IMG/VR virus record: IMGVR_UViG_3300040815_003350
Length of the DNA stretch: 20,000 nt
Strand: one strand, 5' to 3'
Source of the DNA: an uncultured virus (IMG/VR IMGVR_UViG_3300040815_003350)
Lineage: Duplodnaviria; Heunggongvirae; Uroviricota; Caudoviricetes
Part shown: positions 819 through 18,423 of the stretch, piece by piece
How positions within the stretch are numbered: the stretch's first letter is position 1
Layout: every line of letters starts with the position of its first letter
Made by a program: the position numbers and the translations under genes
The notes under the pieces: model-generated
Databases searched by the model: none
Told to the model about the DNA's origin: nothing
Seen by the model: only the letters and a program-made list of their open reading frames with translations

Positions 819-3263
819 ATGTTATTATATAATGCTTCTTCATCTTTTGCTTTAAGCTTATCATCATCTAATAATTTAGTTGACAATAGAATACAATTCA
901 TTTTTAGAAATTCTGAAAACACTTCATCAAATTCCCCACTTGTTCTTCATGTAAGCGGTACAGATGATCCTCGTGTAGGTATTGGTTTTCCTTCTAATGA
1001 AAAACCCCTCCAAACCTTAGATATAAAATCTGTAAAAGATTCCTCACAAGGTGCCGAACTTTTAATAAGAAGCTCTAGACAAACTGTAGGCGCCCTCCCT
1101 GGAGACTCAGCAGGTAAAATTAACTTTACAATTGACAGTGGAAGTTTCGCAAAAGTAGACTCTTCAGGATCAGTAGCTGTTATTGATGCTATTGTTAGTA
1201 CTGCTACTAAGGAGGGGGTTTTTGGAGCTTTATCTTTTAAAGTAGCAGAAGGTGTTTCTGAAGAAGCAACCGAAATAATAAATATATCTTCTACAGATAC
1301 AACCATATCTGGATCTGTAATAACGTTAGGATCTATAACAGCTTCTGTTATAAGTGCTAGTGAAAATATAGAAGCTCCTAATTTTATTGTACCTAGTGGA
1401 GGAGCGCTTAAACTTAGTAACAACATATCAAGTATTGGGGTAAATACTTCCAACATAATTTTTAGTAATAGTGGAAATGAAATTTTTAGGTTAGGAAATA
1501 GTGAAGGAGCAGTATTTAATAATAATGGAGCTTCTGGATTAGATTTTAGAATAGAGGGTGATACTGATACCCATTTATTTTTTGTTTCGGGTAATATAGA
1601 TAAAATAGGTATAGGTACTAGTACCCCAAGCGAAAAATTAACTGTAGAAGGTAATATAAGCTCTAGTGGAGCTTTAACTACGTCAGGAGTTAAAATTACA
1701 AATCTTTCTACTACAACAGAAACAGAATACATAGTAGTAGACTCAGATGGTAACTTAAGTAAAAGATCAGCAGGTGCTTCGGGTACCTCAGGTACCTCAG
1801 GCGAATCAGGTACCTCAGGTACTTCAGGCTTATCAGGTACTTCAGGTACCTCAGGCGAATCAGGTACTTCAGGCGAATCCGGTACTTCAGGTACTAGTGG
1901 CTCATCAGGTACCTCAGGCGAATCAGGCACCTCAGGCGAATCAGGTACTTCAGGTACCTCAGGTACTTCAGGCGAATCAGGTACTTCAGGTACCTCAGGT
2001 ACTTCAGGCGAATCAGGTACCTCAGGTACTTCAGGCTTATCAGGTACTTCAGGTACCTCAGGCGAATCAGGCACCTCAGGCGAATCAGGTACTTCAGGTA
2101 CCTCAGGTACTTCAGGCGAATCAGGCACCTCAGGCGAATCAGGTACTTCAGGTACCTCAGGTACTTCAGGCGAATCAGGTACTTCAGGTACCTCAGGTAC
2201 TTCAGGCGAATCAGGCACCTCAGGTACTTCAGGCGAATCAGGTACTTCAGGCGAATCAGGTACTAGTGGCTCATCAGGTACCTCAGGTACTTCAGGTACT
2301 TCAGGCGAATCAGGTACCTCAGGTACTTCAGGCGAATCAGGTACTAGTGGCTCATCAGGTACCTCAGGTACCTCAGGCGAATCAGGTACTTCAGGTACCT
2401 CAGGTACTTCAGGCGAATCAGGTACTAGTGGCTCATCAGGTACCTCAGGTACTTCAGGTACTTCAGGCGAATCAGGTACCTCAGGTACTTCAGGCGAAGA
2501 TGGTACCTCAGGTACTTCAGGCGAATCAGGTACTAGTGGCTCATCAGGTACCTCAGGTACTTCAGGCGAATCAGGTACTTCAGGTACCTCAGGCGAATCA
2601 GGTACTTCAGGTACTTCAGGTACCTCAGGAGAAGATGGCACTTCAGGTACCTCAGGTGAAAATGGTTCTTCAGGTACCTCAGGCGAATCAGGTACTTCAG
2701 GTACTAGTGGAGCATCACCTACTATAGGAGGATCTAATACTCAAATTCAATACAACAATAACGGTTCTTTAGGAGGTGATTCTGATCTTACATGGAATAA
2801 TAGTACTAATACTTTAAGTGTGAAATCTGGTTCTATAGATTATTTAGCAATAAACGATAGACTTCAAGGTAATGGTGCTGGTTTTCAATTTTTTGCTTTT
2901 AATGAAGATACAACAAAATTAAAATTTGTAAATTGGTATACAGATAATGATAATCAATATGGTATGGGTATGTTGTGGTACGAAACTTGGTTTGGTGCTA
3001 TTGATACTGATGGTGATGCTAATGATATAAATAGACGTATTGGGTTTTATCTCGAAGAACCTAACTCTGGATCTACTGACTCCCCATCAGGAGTAACCGG
3101 TGTACACCCTTCAAATGCCCGTTTTTATGTTGATGTTACTGGTTCTTATGTTGCTAGTGGCAGTTTAACAGTGACAGATGCCAATTTTAAAGTATCTTCT
3201 AGTGGTGATGTAACTATAGCAGGAGAATTATCAGCGAATATAATTAACGGAGGCACATTCTAA
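819..3263 (+). CDS. Putative tail fibre/virion fibre protein with a long collagen-like (Gly-X-Ser)n segment
   Basis: 814-aa ORF. Fibre-type motifs ([52 protein letters not shown]), 105 G-X-Y triplets, and C-terminal INGGTF shared with 6195-6671. Confidence 0.75.
1773..2717 (+). repeat. Coding 9-bp tandem repeat (TCAGGTACY / TCAGGCGAA units) encoding 105 Gly-X-Ser/Asp/Asn triplets
   Basis: 945 nt = 105 x 9 nt with Gly at every third residue (GTS, GES, GSS, GLS, GED, GEN, GAS). The block GGTACTAGTGGCTCATCAGGTACC recurs five times. Confidence 0.95.
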
Positions 3264-10344: not shown

Positions 10345-12312
10345 ATGCGGAAATTGTTATATATTACTCCTCACCTTTCAACAGGAGGAGCACCACAATA
10401 CCTTCTAAAAAAAATAGAATTACTTAAAGACGAGTATGATATTTCATTAGTAGAATATACTGATGTAGGGGGCACCCAATTTGTAGTTCAAAAAAATAGG
10501 ATTTTTGATATTATTCCTTCTGAAAAACGAATTACGCTAAGAGAGGATAAAACTCAACTTTTAGATTTTCTTGATCAAGTACAACCTAATATTGTACACT
10601 TAGAAGAAATTCCTGAAATGTTTATGGATAATGGGATTGCTGAGATATTATACAATAAAAATAGAAATTATACTATTTTTGAAACCTCCCACGATAGTTC
10701 TCAAAACCCTAACAACAAACGTTTCTTCCCAGATAAATTTATGTTTGTCTCTAATTGGCAAATTGACCAATATAAAGATATAGATGTACCTGCTGTATTA
10801 GTAGAATATCCTATTGAATATAAAGAAACTAAAAATAAAGAAGAAGCATGTAAACGTTTAGGGTTAGATCCTAACAAAAAACATATTGTCCATGTAGGAT
10901 TATTTACTCCTAGAAAAAATCAAGCTGAGTTTTTTGAATATGCTCGTGCTCTTCCTGAGTACGAGTTTCACTGTATAGGTAACCAAGCAATAAATTTTCA
11001 ACATTATTGGGAACCTTTAATGAAGGATAAACCTAGTAACTTAACTTGGTGGGGCGAGCGTAATGATGTAGATAATTTTTACGAAGCTGCTGATTTATTT
11101 TTATTTACTTCCAAAGGCAATTCCCACGATAAAGAAACAATGCCCCTTGTAATTAGAGAAGCCATATCGTGGAAACTACCCACCCTAATCTATAACCTAG
11201 GGGTTTACCAAAATTATTTTGACAAATACCCAGTAGAATACCTTACTCAGTTTGATGAAAATATTAATAAAATTAAATCTTTAATAGATAATACATTTAT
11301 TGATATTTCTAAAGAAGCATTTGTTTTATCTACATATCCTAATAGCCAAGCAGTAATAGATACTACACTTAAGTGTATAGAATCTATAAAACAAACTAAA
11401 AGATCTATTATTTTAGTATCTCATTATCCTATTCCCGAATCCCTTCAAAAAGAGGTAGATTATTGTATATATGATGCTAATAATATTTTAGTAAAACACA
11501 ATTACTTTACTCAAGCTTGGTGGGCTTCTTCTAATATAAGATTAAATTTTAATTTAAAAAAAGAAGATAATAATTGGTATCACGGCCCCGCAGTATACAC
11601 TAATTACTATAATGGATCTCAATTAGCTGAAAAGCTTGGTTTTGAAAAAGTATATTTTTTAAATTTTGACTATTTAGTAAAATCCAAAACAGATTTTGAT
11701 AATTTATCTATAGAATTGAATAGGCACGATGCCTGTCTTTCTTATGAAACTAATGAGGAAGGAAGTACATATGAAACTTTTTTTATGGCGTTTAGATCTT
11801 CTTATTTTAATTCAACTTTCCCTAAAATTTCAACAGCTAAAGAATACAGTAATTGGGTAAAAAATGTTGATTCTCCTACAAATGGTTTAGAAAAGTCTAT
11901 GTATTGTGCCTTAAAAGGTAAAGGAAATCATTTAGAATTAGATAAAAATAAAGTTCACAATTTCTTCAATTTTAAAGATTTTTCTCAACTAGAGTACTTA
12001 ACTGTTCTTCCTAGTAACAAACCTAATATTATTATTCCTTCTGCTTTATTTTCTGATTCAACTAATTCTAAAAGATTAGTTATTAATATAATAGCTGACA
12101 AACAAAATGTTTTAGAAACTAAAGAGTATATAATAAACCATAAAGGATGTTTTTGGTTTGAGCAAGACTCTACTATAAATAATTCTTTTTTTGACATAGA
12201 ATTTATAGTAACCGATATTCCTACAGACACTATAGTAAAAACAAAAACTATTAAAATTACCCCTGAATATTTAAAATCCCAACTACCCCAAAATGGTTCA
12301 ACCTCAATTTAA
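10345..12312 (+). CDS. Bi-domain glycosyltransferase: N-terminal GT-B (GT4-like) plus C-terminal probable GT-A-like domain
   Basis: HLSTGGAPQYL, VGLFTPRKNQ, GERNDVDNFYEAADLFLFTS and ETMPLVIREA (E-x7-E). C-terminal AFVLSTYP...IILVSH...YFLNFDY. Confidence 0.8.
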   Translation: MRKLLYITPHLSTGGAPQYLLKKIELLKDEYDISLVEYTDVGGTQFVVQKNRIFDIIPSEKRITLREDKTQLLDFLDQVQPNIVHLEEIPEMFMDNGIAEILYNKNRNYTIFETSHDSSQNPNNKRFFPDKFMFVSNWQIDQYKDIDVPAVLVEYPIEYKETKNKEEACKRLGLDPNKKHIVHVGLFTPRKNQAEFFEYARALPEYEFHCIGNQAINFQHYWEPLMKDKPSNLTWWGERNDVDNFYEAADLFLFTSKGNSHDKETMPLVIREAISWKLPTLIYNLGVYQNYFDKYPVEYLTQFDENINKIKSLIDNTFIDISKEAFVLSTYPNSQAVIDTTLKCIESIKQTKRSIILVSHYPIPESLQKEVDYCIYDANNILVKHNYFTQAWWASSNIRLNFNLKKEDNNWYHGPAVYTNYYNGSQLAEKLGFEKVYFLNFDYLVKSKTDFDNLSIELNRHDACLSYETNEEGSTYETFFMAFRSSYFNSTFPKISTAKEYSNWVKNVDSPTNGLEKSMYCALKGKGNHLELDKNKVHNFFNFKDFSQLEYLTVLPSNKPNIIIPSALFSDSTNSKRLVINIIADKQNVLETKEYIINHKGCFWFEQDSTINNSFFDIEFIVTDIPTDTIVKTKTIKITPEYLKSQLPQNGSTSI

Positions 12313-14437
12313 AATCTGCCAGGTTAATCCCGGTTGTGGTATAGAAATACCTCCTAAAGGATGGGGCGCTATTGAAAAAATAGTATGGGAATTTACTAAA
12401 AATTTACGTAAACAAGGACACCAAGTAGATATAAAGTGGACTGATGAAATAAAAAAAGATGAATACGATATAGTTCATGTTCATGTAGCTAACTTAGCTT
12501 TAATTTTAGCAGAGCGAGGTATTCCTTATATATTTCAATGTCATGATCACCATGCTTACCATCATGGTAAAGATAGTTTTATTTTTAAACAAAATCTAGA
12601 AGCGATAGAAAAATCAGAATTATCTATTTTACCTGCTAAGTATTTAGTAGATTATTTTAGGTCTGATAAAGCTGTTTACTTTTCTCACGGAGTTGATACA
12701 GATTTTTTTGTTCCTAATTTAGAAGAGAGGCCCCACAAATTATTAATGGTAGCTAATAATGGGTTAGGGGGTAAAGATGGATATGACAGAAAAGGATTTA
12801 CTGAAGGTATTAAAGCTGCTCATAAATTAAACCTTCCAATAACAATAGCTGGACCTGAAAATAACAAAAATTTTATAGAAAAAAATTCTTGGGTTAAAAA
12901 TTATGATATTAACTGGATTTTTAACCCAAACCAAGAAGAACTCCTTAATCTATACCAAACCCACACAATATTCCTCCACCCCTCAGAATTAGAAGCAGGT
13001 CATCCTAATTTAACTATACTAGAAGCAATGGCTTGTGGTTTACCTGTAGTAGGTTGTATGGAAGATAATTTAAAGGGAATGGTAAAAGTAGAAAAAATAT
13101 TTACTGAAGTTTCCCAAGGAATCAAACAAATACTTAAAGATTATACTATTTTTCACTCCCAAGCTTTACACACATCAAATAAACTATCTTGGTATAACAG
13201 AAGCTCAGAACTAATAAAATTAATAATTCCTAGTAATATGAAAGAAGTTTTAATTAAAGAATACACTAATACTAAAAAATTAGAATACCAACCCATAGTA
13301 AAAGATTCTTTATCTTTTAATTTTAATTTTAATAATCGTACTTTTTGTGAAATTTTAGGAAATTCCTCTAAAAAATACACAGTAGAATTTACAGATAGTA
13401 ACACATCATATAATCATTATACTACTACATTAAGCCCCAACATGTGGTCAGAATGTAATATACGTTATCATCTCCCTTGGATTATAACAATTAGAGAAAA
13501 GGATTCATTTAAATTAGTACATACCGAACATTTCAATTGCACAGGAAAAAAAGTTTACATTAAATTTGAAAGCAAATCTATAGGGGATACTATAGCTTGG
13601 TTCCCTTATGTAGAAGAATTTAGAAAAAAACACAAATGTGAATTAATTTGTTCTACATTTCATAACAGTTGGTTCGAAACCCAATACCCAGAGATTACAT
13701 TTGTTCCTCCTGGTACTTCTATAGAAGATTCATATGCTTCTTATTCTTTAGGTTGGTTTTATGCTAATGAAACAGAAAAAGATCATAGCAAACACCCCCA
13801 ACCTTTTATTTCTCAACCTTTACAAAAAACAGCTTCTGATATTTTAGGTTTAGAATATAAAGAAATTAAACCTAAAATTAAATCTCTTCCTCCTTCCCCA
13901 ATAAAAGAAAAATATGTAACAATTTCAATTCAATCTACTTGTCAAGCAAAATACTGGAATCACCCAACAGGATGGGAACAAGTAGTAAAACATTTACAAA
14001 ATAAAGGGTATAAGGTAGCGGTTGTAGACAAATATCGAACTTTTGGTATAGGAGCATTTATGAACACCTCTCCTCAAGCAGATTACTATTTTCATGAAAA
14101 ATCTTTAGAAGAAGTAATGCCCATAATAAAGGGAGCAGAATTCCATATAGGAATCAGCTCAGGTCTATCTTGGATGGCATGGGCATTAAATACTCCTGTA
14201 GTTCTTATTTCTTCATTCTCAAAACCTTATTGTGAATTCCAATCAGGATGTACCCGAATATATAAAGAAGATACTTCTACTTATGACCCCCTTCAAGGAT
14301 ATTTTAATACACATAAGCTTGATCCTTCAAATTGGAATTGGTACCCATTTAAAGAAATAAAATCAATGGAGGATTGGTATGAAATAGAAACTATTACTCC
14401 CGAACAAGTTATTAATGAAATAAATAAAATATTATGA
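12293..14437 (+). CDS. Bi-domain glycosyltransferase: N-terminal GT4 plus C-terminal autotransporter O-heptosyltransferase (TibC/Aah, BAHT; GT9-like) domain
   Basis: GT4: IPPKGWGAIEKIVW and EAGHPNLTILEAMACGLPVV. BAHT-like: SIGDTIAWFPYVEEFRKKHKC, YVTISIQSTCQAKYWNHPTGWEQVV, HIGISSGLSWMAWALNTPVVLISSFS. Confidence 0.85.
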   Translation: MVQPQFKICQVNPGCGIEIPPKGWGAIEKIVWEFTKNLRKQGHQVDIKWTDEIKKDEYDIVHVHVANLALILAERGIPYIFQCHDHHAYHHGKDSFIFKQNLEAIEKSELSILPAKYLVDYFRSDKAVYFSHGVDTDFFVPNLEERPHKLLMVANNGLGGKDGYDRKGFTEGIKAAHKLNLPITIAGPENNKNFIEKNSWVKNYDINWIFNPNQEELLNLYQTHTIFLHPSELEAGHPNLTILEAMACGLPVVGCMEDNLKGMVKVEKIFTEVSQGIKQILKDYTIFHSQALHTSNKLSWYNRSSELIKLIIPSNMKEVLIKEYTNTKKLEYQPIVKDSLSFNFNFNNRTFCEILGNSSKKYTVEFTDSNTSYNHYTTTLSPNMWSECNIRYHLPWIITIREKDSFKLVHTEHFNCTGKKVYIKFESKSIGDTIAWFPYVEEFRKKHKCELICSTFHNSWFETQYPEITFVPPGTSIEDSYASYSLGWFYANETEKDHSKHPQPFISQPLQKTASDILGLEYKEIKPKIKSLPPSPIKEKYVTISIQSTCQAKYWNHPTGWEQVVKHLQNKGYKVAVVDKYRTFGIGAFMNTSPQADYYFHEKSLEEVMPIIKGAEFHIGISSGLSWMAWALNTPVVLISSFSKPYCEFQSGCTRIYKEDTSTYDPLQGYFNTHKLDPSNWNWYPFKEIKSMEDWYEIETITPEQVINEINKIL

Positions 14438-16476: not shown

Positions 16477-16508
16477 TTTGGGGTTCTGAATTTGCGTTCG
16501 TATGTTTA
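16477..16508 (+). promoter_or_regulatory. Bacteroidota-type promoter candidate (TTTG-N20-TATGTTTA) upstream of ssb
   Basis: TTTG at 16477-16480 and TATGTTTA at 16501-16508, one mismatch to TAnnTTTG, with a 20-nt spacer. Confidence 0.5.
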
Positions 16509-16540
16509 CGCAAAAGTTATATTAAAAAATTAGTTACATT

Positions 16541-17344
16541 ATGGATTTAAATGCTATTCGAAGCAAGCTGAATTCACTTCAGCAAACAAACAAAGGTGGT
16601 GGTGGAAGCGACCGTAGCCTTTTCTGGAAGCCTAGTGTGGGTAAACAAGTTATCCGCATTGTTCCTAACAAGTTCAACAAATCTAATCCTTTTACGGAGG
16701 TTTACTTCCACTATGGGATTGGTGAACGTACGATGATTTCACCTATTAATTTTGGTGAAAAAGACCCTATCGTTGAGTTCGCGAAGCAACTTCGCAACAC
16801 TAGCGATAAGGAAAATTGGCGTTTGGCTAAAAAGCTTGACCCCAAGATGCGTGTATTTGCTCCTGTTATTGTTCGTGGCGAAGAACACGAAGGAGTAAAG
16901 TTGTGGCAGTTTGGTAAGAACACTTACCTTGATTTCCTCTCACTTGCTGATGATGATGATATTGGTGATTACACCGACATTCACCAGGGTCGTGACATTA
17001 CAGTAGACACCGTTGGTCCTGACGTTACAGGTACTGCTTATAACAAGTCTTCTGTTCGTGTTAAGACGAAGCAAACACCACTTGGTGATGCTGACCAGAT
17101 CCAGCAGTGGTTGGATGATCAAAAGAACCCAATGGAGGTCTTTAAGCGTCACTCATTTGAGGATATGAAAAACAATCTCCAAACATTCTTGGCACCTGAA
17201 GAGGCAGCTCAAGAAGGAGATATTATTGATGAAGGAAAGACTGACGATCTCCCTTTTGATAAAGGGGGGTCACAAAACAACTATGCTCTGAAGACCCCCC
17301 AGAAGCAAAATAAAGTTGATAAATTTGATGAATTGTTTAGCTAA
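16541..17344 (+). CDS. ssb: Single-stranded DNA-binding protein, T4 gp32-like
   Basis: FWKPSVGKQVIRIVP, PFTEVYFHY, DPIVEF, GVKLWQFGK, DYTDIHQGRDITV, and an acidic tail. Sits directly before the recombinase and shows high-expression-type codon use (cgt, ggt, aac, ttc). Confidence 0.8.
   Translation: MDLNAIRSKLNSLQQTNKGGGGSDRSLFWKPSVGKQVIRIVPNKFNKSNPFTEVYFHYGIGERTMISPINFGEKDPIVEFAKQLRNTSDKENWRLAKKLDPKMRVFAPVIVRGEEHEGVKLWQFGKNTYLDFLSLADDDDIGDYTDIHQGRDITVDTVGPDVTGTAYNKSSVRVKTKQTPLGDADQIQQWLDDQKNPMEVFKRHSFEDMKNNLQTFLAPEEAAQEGDIIDEGKTDDLPFDKGGSQNNYALKTPQKQNKVDKFDELFS
17251..17300 (+). other. Candidate -1 programmed ribosomal frameshift signal in ssb (C_CCT_TTT, 6-nt spacer, GGGGGGTC/GACCCCCC stem)
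   Basis: In-frame X_XXY_YYZ heptamer at 17251-17257. The -1 frame reads CCC TTT TGA. Perfect 8-bp inverted repeat at 17264-17271 / 17293-17300. Confidence 0.6.
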
Positions 17345-18423
17345 TGCCTAGAGGAAAGAAAGCATCATTATCAGCGGCTGTCTCTAATGAACTTAAGGCG
17401 AATTTTGACCTTGGTAAGTTTAAGGAGAAAAAAATGCTTAACTCGAATGTTAAGTTTAAGCCACAACAATGGATCCCACTTTCCCAAGCATTCCAGGATG
17501 TAACTTCAATACCTGGCATTCCCGCAGGACATATTGTTCTGCTCCGAGGCCACTCTGATACCGGCAAGACAACCGCCTTGATTGAGGCGGCTGTCTCTGC
17601 CCAAAAGAGAGGCATCCTCCCAGTGTTTATTATCACTGAGATGAAGTGGAATTGGGAACATGCCCAACAAATGGGATTGGAGTTGAATACTGAAGTAGAT
17701 GAGGAAACTGGAGAAGTTCTAAATTACAATGGACAGTTCATTTATGTAGATAGAGAAACTATTAACTCTATTGAAGACGTAGCAGCATTTATCTTAGATT
17801 TGCTTGATGAACAAAAGAAAGGTAATCTTCCTTATGATTTGCTTTTCTTGTGGGATTCAATTGGATCAGTTCCTTGTGAGATGTCTATTAAATCAAACAA
17901 GAACAACAATGAATGGAACGCAGGTGCTATGTCTACCCAATTTGGTAACAACGTAAACCAGCGTATTACACTTTCACGTAAGGAAAGTAGCCCATTTACC
18001 AATACACTTGTGTGTATTAATAAGGTATGGACACTTAAACCTGAATCACCTATGGGTAAACCCAAGTTGATGAATAAAGGTGGGTATGCTATGTGGTTTG
18101 ATTCAACATTTGTAGTAACATTTGGTAATGTAATGTCTGCTGGTACCTCTAAAATTAAAGCAATCAAAGATGGTAAGCAGGTTGAATTTGCCAAACGTAC
18201 TAATCTACAAATTGATAAAAATCATATTAATGGTGTTACTACTAGAGGTAAAATTGTAATGACACCTCATGGGTTCATTAATGACGATGATAAAGAGATC
18301 AAATCCTATAAAAATGACCACGCAGAAGCTTGGAGAGAAGTTTTAGGGGGCGTAGATTTCGACATCATTGAAGAAGATCAAGAAGTACAAGATATCTCGC
18401 ACTTCGAGAAAGAACCCGACTAA
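17344..18423 (+). CDS. recA: RecA/UvsX-like recombinase
   Basis: Walker A GHSDTGKTT after GIPAGHIVLL, Walker B LFLWDSIGS, LVCINKVW and NKGGYAMWF (equivalent to TxGGxALKF), QIDKNHI. Confidence 0.85.
   Translation: MPRGKKASLSAAVSNELKANFDLGKFKEKKMLNSNVKFKPQQWIPLSQAFQDVTSIPGIPAGHIVLLRGHSDTGKTTALIEAAVSAQKRGILPVFIITEMKWNWEHAQQMGLELNTEVDEETGEVLNYNGQFIYVDRETINSIEDVAAFILDLLDEQKKGNLPYDLLFLWDSIGSVPCEMSIKSNKNNNEWNAGAMSTQFGNNVNQRITLSRKESSPFTNTLVCINKVWTLKPESPMGKPKLMNKGGYAMWFDSTFVVTFGNVMSAGTSKIKAIKDGKQVEFAKRTNLQIDKNHINGVTTRGKIVMTPHGFINDDDKEIKSYKNDHAEAWREVLGGVDFDIIEEDQEVQDISHFEKEPD

Follow-up and report, generated by a model that had tools for sequence, protein, structure and literature searches.

The DNA analyzed here, referred to as the window, is a stretch of 20,000 nucleotides (nt) from an uncultured virus of the Caudoviricetes (IMG/VR record IMGVR_UViG_3300040815_003350). 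It carries an ssb gene for an SSB (single-stranded DNA-binding protein) of the gp32 family, and a site late in this gene is probably a real programmed -1 ribosomal frameshift signal of the type known from dnaX of Escherichia coli. A dnaX-type frameshift is the best explanation because the anatomy of the site, the constraint on its codons, the covariation of a downstream stem, the position of the -1 stop exactly after a Phe codon, and the history of the protein family all point to it. An initial annotation of the window, prepared from the sequence alone, had proposed such a site followed by a pseudoknot. The site itself, at which the protein would end as ...DDLPF, holds up on sequence grounds, and the pseudoknot does not.

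Anatomy of the candidate slip site

The gene and the elements of the site are as follows.

16541-17344, + strand: ssb gene, gp32 family; the frame-0 product has 267 amino acids (aa) and the C-terminus ...KVDKFDELFS
17243-17257, + strand: codons for DDLPF (D235 D236 L237 P238 F239), internal in frame 0
17251-17257, + strand: candidate slippery heptamer C_CCT_TTT, in frame; P-site CCU would shift to CCC and A-site UUU to UUU
17257-17262, + strand: tandem -1 frame stops TGA TAA, right after the slipped Phe codon
17258-17263, + strand: conserved 6-nt spacer GATAAA between heptamer and stem
17264-17271, + strand: 5' arm of the downstream stem, GGGGGGTC
17293-17300, + strand: 3' arm of the downstream stem, GACCCCCC
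17321-17341, + strand: codons for KFDELFS, the frame-0 C-terminal motif, present in the 267-aa form only; KFDxLF is kept across the subfamily

The coordinates in the initial annotation are all correct, including those of the open reading frame (ORF), the heptamer, the -1 stop, the stem, and the two segments of the suggested pseudoknot, CAACT (17278-17282) and AGTTG (17314-17318). In frame 0, positions 17243-17263 are read GAC GAT CTC CCT TTT GAT AAA. The -1 reading is CCC TTT TGA TAA, and the predicted slipped product stops at residue 239 as ...TDDLPF. The downstream stem GGGGGGTC/GACCCCCC is a perfect 8-bp G/C helix with a 21-nt loop, and it starts 6 nt past the heptamer. Judged by sequence, the usual marks of a frameshift site are present together, namely a heptamer, a structure 5-9 nt downstream, synonymous conservation, and a defined outcome in the -1 frame. 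The fold of 17251-17330 reaches -19.0 kcal/mol (z = -2.43), and 1 of 200 shuffled sequences was equally stable.

In-frame heptamers of the form X_XXY_YYZ occur 70 times in the 6525 codons of the window, and an immediate -1 stop follows 10 of them. Of these 70, the heptamer at 17251 is the one followed by the most stable 45-nt fold (-16.8 kcal/mol). The heptamer alone is no rarer than chance, and its significance therefore rests on conservation among relatives. According to Sharma et al. 2014 (PMC4066793), heptamers of the type H_HH.U_UU.Y rank with the most efficient in E. coli, and the tetramers U_UU.U and U_UU.C are shift-prone.

Conservation among relatives

Relatives were retrieved independently of codon choice at the site, either with peptide patterns located elsewhere in the protein or with fully degenerate patterns. 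A search of viral contigs that was blind to this site yielded 404 relatives, of which 80 were kept. The layout of the window is found in 66 of these loci, which are 74-99% identical: DLPF is internal, and after it come [D/N]-K-G-G-S-Q-N-N-Y-A-L-K...K-F-D-E-L-F-S and the stop codon. Three of the kept loci are cut by contig ends, and 11 more distant ones (62-66%) have the reversed order, with NYxLK...KFDxLF first and an end in ...DDDLPF (9) or ...DDFVF (2). Another 12 reversed-order loci all have a ...DDLPF C-terminus. Scans with degenerate patterns returned 64 viral and 73 metagenomic stretches, including 4 metagenomic chance matches. The pooled set comprises 66 distinct homologous ssb segments.

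The heptamer CCCTTTT is present in 58 of the 66 segments, and the variants are GCCTTTT (4), CCCTTTC (2), TCCTTTT (1), and ACCTTTT (1). An immediate -1 stop was found in 64 segments (TGA in 59, TAA in 5), the second -1 codon is TAA in all 66, and a stem with at least 7 contiguous pairs is formed in 63. Within the clade, the residue after Phe is limited to Asp (GAT) or Asn (AAT); either codon keeps the -1 stop, and its T supplies the second stop, TAA. LPF is invariant in the 53 unique coding sequences (CDS) of the clade, which use CCT in 53/53, TTT in 52/53, and CTC in 47/53. The 48 distinct segments in which LPF is terminal never contain CCCTTTT (0/48). Their codons are TTA 26, TTG 9, CTT 4, CTG 4, CTA 4, and CTC 1 for Leu, CCA 33, CCC 10, and CCT 5 for Pro, and TTT 35 and TTC 13 for Phe.

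Two proteins of the internal-PF clade, P0013 and P0016 (83% and 79% identical to the window SSB), have ...SPF-S-KGE... in place of DLPF-D-KGG; Ser encoded as AGY would give UAG in the -1 frame. A search for their coding DNA gave nothing closer than 83% in viral contigs, and only an ordinary clade member in genome contigs. The locus L380, an ordinary internal-LPF member of the clade, lies on a 5.9-kb contig in a metagenome-assembled genome labelled Aliivibrio, whose own SSBs end in DDDIPF and DDDIAF. We treat this binning as unreliable, and the contig is probably a mis-binned phage contig.

Synonymous constraint and codon choice

Constraint on synonymous sites was measured in the 53 unique CDS of the internal-LPF clade, whose tree has a total length of 3.66 substitutions per site. 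Synonymous changes were counted per codon by parsimony and compared with the average for codons of that amino acid in the rest of the gene. For the P-F-D-K-G window, 2 synonymous changes were counted where 28.3 were expected, which is the minimum among 197 five-codon windows, and L-P-F-D-K shows 4 against 29.4. Among regions that do not overlap these, the beginning of the gene comes next (ratio 0.30). The GAT codon after Phe is retained in 49/49, with no synonymous change against 5.6 expected. Other codons in the same sequences vary freely, for example Tyr248 (12 changes), Leu217 (14), and Asp263 (10).

The site is fixed for rare codons. In the rest of the gene, CTC accounts for 7.6% of Leu codons and GGG for 7.8% of Gly codons, and the CCC of the 3' stem arm, kept in 49/51 sequences, makes up only 16% of Pro codons. 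The initial annotation named conservation of the heptamer and -1 stop in homologues, synonymous-site constraint, and stem covariation as tests of its proposal, and all of these were found. The anatomy of the sequence and its selective maintenance at the nucleotide level are what the data show.

RNA structure

Structures were compared in an alignment of 43 distinct segments of 102 nt. The downstream stem is paired in 95.6% of its cells. Its pair 26:54 takes the forms GU (21 sequences), AU (8), GC (6), UA (4), UG (1), and other (3), and the covariation score is 0.196 compared with 0.137 for shuffles, none of which (0/500) reach the observed score. When the partner is slid by 1-3 columns, the score falls to 0.052 or less. 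Changes in column 26 swap the amino acid (Gly, Glu, Val), and the opposite Thr/Ala codon compensates at synonymous third positions. Sequences of the L008 type keep a register-shifted stem, GGGGGAG/CTCCCCC. The pseudoknot that the initial annotation had suggested between CAACT and AGTTG fares poorly in the same alignment, where 80.9% of its cells are paired, pair 37:84 is unpaired in 20/43 sequences, and no two-sided change occurs.

A second helix, which the initial annotation had not noticed, can form on the other side of the G-run.

17246-17256, + strand: upstream arm GATCTCCCTTT, which pairs with AAAGGGGGGTC at 17261-17271 (11 bp, loop TGAT)

Most of the heptamer lies in this upstream hairpin, and the downstream stem must compete with it for the G-run. 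RNAalifold returns the hairpin as the consensus structure, and it is 93.9% paired across the 43 sequences. Its covariation score is 0.059, against a shuffle score of 0.051 and a score of 0.067 with the partner shifted by +1, and it was rejected as the selected element because it shows no covariation beyond controls. Its pair 7:26 is broken in 14/43 sequences, and the base that varies there covaries with the arm of the downstream stem. By the time the heptamer occupies the P and A sites of a ribosome, the upstream hairpin must have been melted, which leaves the G-run free to form the downstream stem at the mRNA entrance.

When all column pairs were scanned for further conserved helices, nothing emerged beyond the two helices already described, the downstream stem and the upstream hairpin, and some short A/U-rich runs. 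An Rfam search gave no match at the site; its sole match was ES173, on the minus strand, with E = 0.79. A terminator, a promoter, or a known RNA family was rejected, as there is no + strand terminator at the site and no Rfam match. Transcriptional slippage or a fixed indel was also discarded, since the T-run has only 4 bases and contigs span 17162-17420 without a listed indel. These contigs come from three RNA libraries and one DNA run, in which rare variants are dropped and the RNA libraries may contain DNA, and the check speaks only to a fixed indel in RNA or DNA and not to translation. The mean regional fold energy is -27.0 kcal/mol in the internal clade, -20.7 kcal/mol in terminal-PF forms, and -17.5 kcal/mol in the DLPW clade described below, which is consistent with a frameshift but is confounded by GC content (0.39 vs 0.35 and 0.36).

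Wider family and history of the tip

To place the site in its family, 123 proteins were compared, consisting of the best 120 of 6884 homologues (E <= 1e-10), the window protein, and two cultured-phage SSBs. Their tails fall into these classes.

Terminal xPF: 90/123
Internal PF, the layout of the window: 17/123
Internal DLPW in the corresponding position, acidic C-terminal end: 7/123
DLPF or DLPW followed by 2-3 residues: 4/123
Terminal FVF: 3/123
None of these motifs (immuto, Mel-JY01): 2/123

KFDxLF is kept by every tail class, and both cultured-phage SSBs (those of Flavobacterium phage immuto and Microcystis phage Mel-JY01) have it. The phage-type tail recognized by the initial annotation is thus an old motif, found near the C-terminus across the subfamily. 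In a core tree, from which the last 70 residues were removed and one protein of < 240 aa was left out, the internal-PF group is monophyletic (16/16, support 0.938) and nested among terminal-PF forms. This placement implies that the tip moved from the end to an internal position once, in the clade that carries the slip signal.

The DLPW clade includes the loci L381-L387 and L432-L434 and the proteins P0034, P0064, P0080, P0106, and P0117-P0119. Its members carry SDLPW[D/E] upstream of NYxLK (APWED in P0080) and have an acidic C-terminus without PF.

Proposed mechanism and alternative explanations

In the proposed mechanism, CCU (Pro238) would occupy the P site and UUU (Phe239) the A site when the stem at 17264-17300 reaches the mRNA entrance of the ribosome. 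A fraction of ribosomes would slip back one base and terminate at UGA, with UAA behind it as a second stop, yielding a 239-aa SSB that ends in ...TDDLPF. The remaining ribosomes would make the 267-aa form with ...KVDKFDELFS and terminate at the TAATG junction with the next gene, uvsX. That slipping occurs, at whatever rate, is inferred. Acidic residues followed by [IL]-P-F are present as ...TDDLPF at residues 234-239. In frame 0, 28 residues follow this Phe, and it would be terminal only in the hypothetical -1 product. By analogy with the C-terminal tip of bacterial SSBs, it is plausible, though a little short of probable, that the short form docks partners via its free DDLPF end. Such a form could dock host or phage partners beyond the reach of the long form, and we infer that the long form uses the family-wide KFDxLF for others.

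Several observations weigh against this interpretation. The covariation of the stem comes mainly from one pair and probably reflects few independent events. The minimum-energy fold of the free RNA is the upstream hairpin (-23.6 kcal/mol), which sequesters both the G-run and the heptamer, and this hairpin could explain part of the nucleotide conservation. Some lineages also depart from the expected site. Two of the 66 segments have CCCTTTC, and their -1 product would end in ...LPFR with no free Phe, although the stem and TAA are still present. The L053-type lineage has TCCTTTT and lacks a downstream structure (-7.3 kcal/mol, z = -0.19), and the stem is weakened in 2/66 segments. In the segments with GCCTTTT (4) or ACCTTTT (1), re-pairing in the P site is imperfect, and these five would depend on the U_UUU tetramer. 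Outside the clade, the separate DLPW group (7/123) encodes its internal SDLPW with the non-slippery codons TTA CCT/CCA TGG. Non-slippery codons also encode the ends DLPFDLE and DLPFDLK (CTT CCC TTT/TTC in L368-L372 and L374) and DLPWEK (L402 and L427). The DLPW, DLPFDLE, and DLPFDLK forms indicate that the motif can exist without being terminal. Not all family members have a free Phe, which in part weakens the proposals that the short form captures host SSB partners and that a free Phe is strictly needed.

In an alternative explanation there is no functional frameshifting, and the site is an RNA element that serves something else, for instance the stability or processing of the mRNA or the flow of ribosomes into uvsX. 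Here the upstream hairpin would alternate with the downstream stem, and DLPF would be an internal linear motif, as DLPW seems to be elsewhere. The standing of the upstream hairpin as RNAalifold consensus and as the free-RNA minimum, with its 93.9% pairing, fits this idea, as does the occurrence of internal DLPW and near-terminal DLPF without slippery codons. However, the hairpin shows no covariation of its own, and its pair 7:26 is broken in a third of the aligned sequences (14/43). It would also tolerate CTT, which forms a U-G pair and is the commonest Leu codon (36.5%), yet the rare CTC is the codon kept in 47/53 CDS. The bases of its loop, TGAT, are fixed by the TTT (52/53) and GAT (49/49) codons, which fits the -1 stops better than a loop, and the change from D to N preserves the -1 stop. 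Together with the lack of an Rfam match and of a + strand terminator, these results make an RNA element of another kind unlikely. Simple chance is scarcely credible. It would require a fortuitous heptamer, stop, and stem, conserved only through close kinship. Heptamers are indeed common in this AT-rich window, and many of the loci are near-identical, but synonymous sites in the flanks change freely over a tree of 3.66 substitutions per site, as seen at Tyr248, Leu217, and Asp263, and the site retains only 2 changes of the 28.3 expected.

A real frameshift may also serve dosage and not docking. The product would then be a tail-less SSB without the NYALK...KFDELFS module, a set fraction of ribosomes would stop about 85 nt before TAATG, coupled translation of uvsX would be lowered relative to SSB, and DDLPF would be secondary. 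The overlap of the ssb stop with the uvsX start favors this possibility, since a ribosome terminating at 17257-17262 after a slip would fall short of the coupled start. It would also suit the TTC lineage, which would end in ...LPFR yet retains the heptamer type, stem, and TAA, and dnaX-type frameshifts are known to set isoform ratios. On the other hand, the stop lies exactly after Phe in 64/66 segments, xPF is the true C-terminus in 90/123 family proteins, and LPF is invariant in the clade. We consider dosage very unlikely as the principal role; it is a sub-case of the dnaX-type frameshift and does not exclude it.

A more elaborate variant of the frameshift would be a tunable isoform switch in place of a slip with a fixed ratio. 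The G-run would pair either upstream, where it hides the heptamer, or downstream, where it acts as a stimulator, and ribosome traffic or the binding of the helix-destabilising SSB to its own mRNA, as known for T4 gp32, could set the ratio. Such a switch would link the level of free SSB, or the stage of infection, to the balance between a DDLPF form for the host interactome and a KFDELFS form for the replisome, and to the flow of ribosomes into uvsX. We regard this switch as quite unlikely.

Relation to known systems

A close known parallel is the tau/gamma frameshift of E. coli dnaX. Both concern a replication gene with an X_XXY_YYZ heptamer, a short spacer, a downstream stem-loop, and a near-immediate -1 stop, and in both, one gene would give full-length and truncated isoforms whose C-termini bind different partners. 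They differ in the heptamer, which is A_AAA_AAG in dnaX and C_CCU_UUU here, and an upstream stimulator resembling a Shine-Dalgarno sequence was not identified in the phage ssb. Furthermore, the phage protein is a gp32-type SSB, and its truncation would create a terminal DDLPF and not merely remove domains.

Flavobacterial SSBs generally end in DDLPF. The C-terminal tip of bacterial SSBs (DDDIPF in E. coli) resembles the DDLPF region of the window SSB in that an acidic run is followed by [IL]-P-F beyond the folded core. DDDLPF is the SSB tip of Staphylococcus aureus and other Gram-positive bacteria (PMC5531588), and the terminal Phe's side chain and alpha-carboxyl group in bacterial SSBs dock into partner proteins (PMC10164576; PMC5531588). 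The bacterial proteins belong to the OB-fold family PF00436, whereas the phage protein belongs to the gp32 family PF08804, and the phage motif is internal in frame 0; the proposed slip would be needed to make it terminal. Host-like or aromatic tips also occur in phage SSBs. T7 gp2.5 needs its C-terminal Phe. Most relatives of the window SSB end in ...DDLPF, and coliphage Bas48 has an SSB-like protein with the ending DDIPF (bioRxiv 10.64898/2026.10.27.754916). In all these proteins the tip is the plain end of the ORF and involves no recoding.

Other phage -1 frameshifts share a heptamer slip that gives two products in a fixed ratio, but they extend structural proteins, whereas a slip in the phage ssb would shorten a replication protein. 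They include the lambda G/GT tail chaperones and T7 gene 10A/10B. SPP1 provides further examples (PMC6316719). Literature searches, which left most subscription journals outside their coverage, found no published frameshift in a phage SSB. The Atkins 2016 review makes no mention of SSB or gp32 in its first 300,000 characters, and the accessible section of the Nhi preprint describes staphylococcal phage SSBs truncated by indels and no recoding.

If confirmed, the site would mean that a phage SSB is subject to recoding, and the searches found no published description of this. Its logic would be unusual, because the placement of a stop would turn a docking motif that needs a free C-terminus into the C-terminus itself. 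A single gene would then supply two forms of SSB with different partner sets, through an element of only about 55 nt. The family offers a natural experiment with three states, namely a tip that is terminal, a tip that is internal and accompanied by a slip site, and an internal DLPW that lacks such a site. Gene callers give only the 267-aa form, which matters for annotation. The subject also bears on how phages tap the host SSB interactome and on the rising number of defence systems known to sense phage SSBs.

The gene, its neighbours, and its closest relatives

Residues 34-212 of the SSB match Pfam PF08804 (E = 1.5e-11; 45.1 bits, above the cut-off of 26.8), and a profile search matched the protein to PHROG 1192 (E = 1e-19). 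The predicted structure has a mean pLDDT of 54.7, a low confidence that is too poor for fold searches. In this low-confidence model, residues 220-263 have a pLDDT < 50, which gives a weak hint of disorder, and a short helix is predicted at residues 259-265. The next gene overlaps the ssb stop.

17344-18423, + strand: gene for a uvsX/RecA-like recombinase; its ATG overlaps the ssb stop (TAATG, 17342-17346)

After the uvsX-like gene come genes for a 5'-3' exonuclease and a DnaB-like helicase, an arrangement that fits a replication and recombination context. The rest of the window is phage DNA, in which a collagen-repeat tail fibre and glycosyltransferases precede the replication and recombination block. 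The regions 819-3263 and 10345-14437 encode a tail-fibre-like protein of 814 aa with collagen triple-helix repeats (PF01391, E = 5.9e-46) and a pair of large glycosyltransferase-like proteins with several domains (655 and 714 aa), after which comes a DUF6165 protein.

Among cultured phages, Flavobacterium phage immuto is the nearest relative, with an SSB that is 44% identical and a recombinase that is 62.9% identical. Near-identical DNA is present in sequencing runs from estuary and seawater. The source is an uncultured marine or estuarine phage related to immuto.

Two further features concern the start of the gene. The 64-nt leader of ssb contains a 7-bp perfect inverted repeat, TTTGCGT/ACGCAAA, at 16491-16514; T4 gp32 is autoregulated via its leader and binds its own mRNA. 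The first ~12 codons of ssb (16541-16575) show the second-strongest synonymous constraint in the gene, with a ratio of about 0.30, and such constraint is usual at translation-initiation regions.

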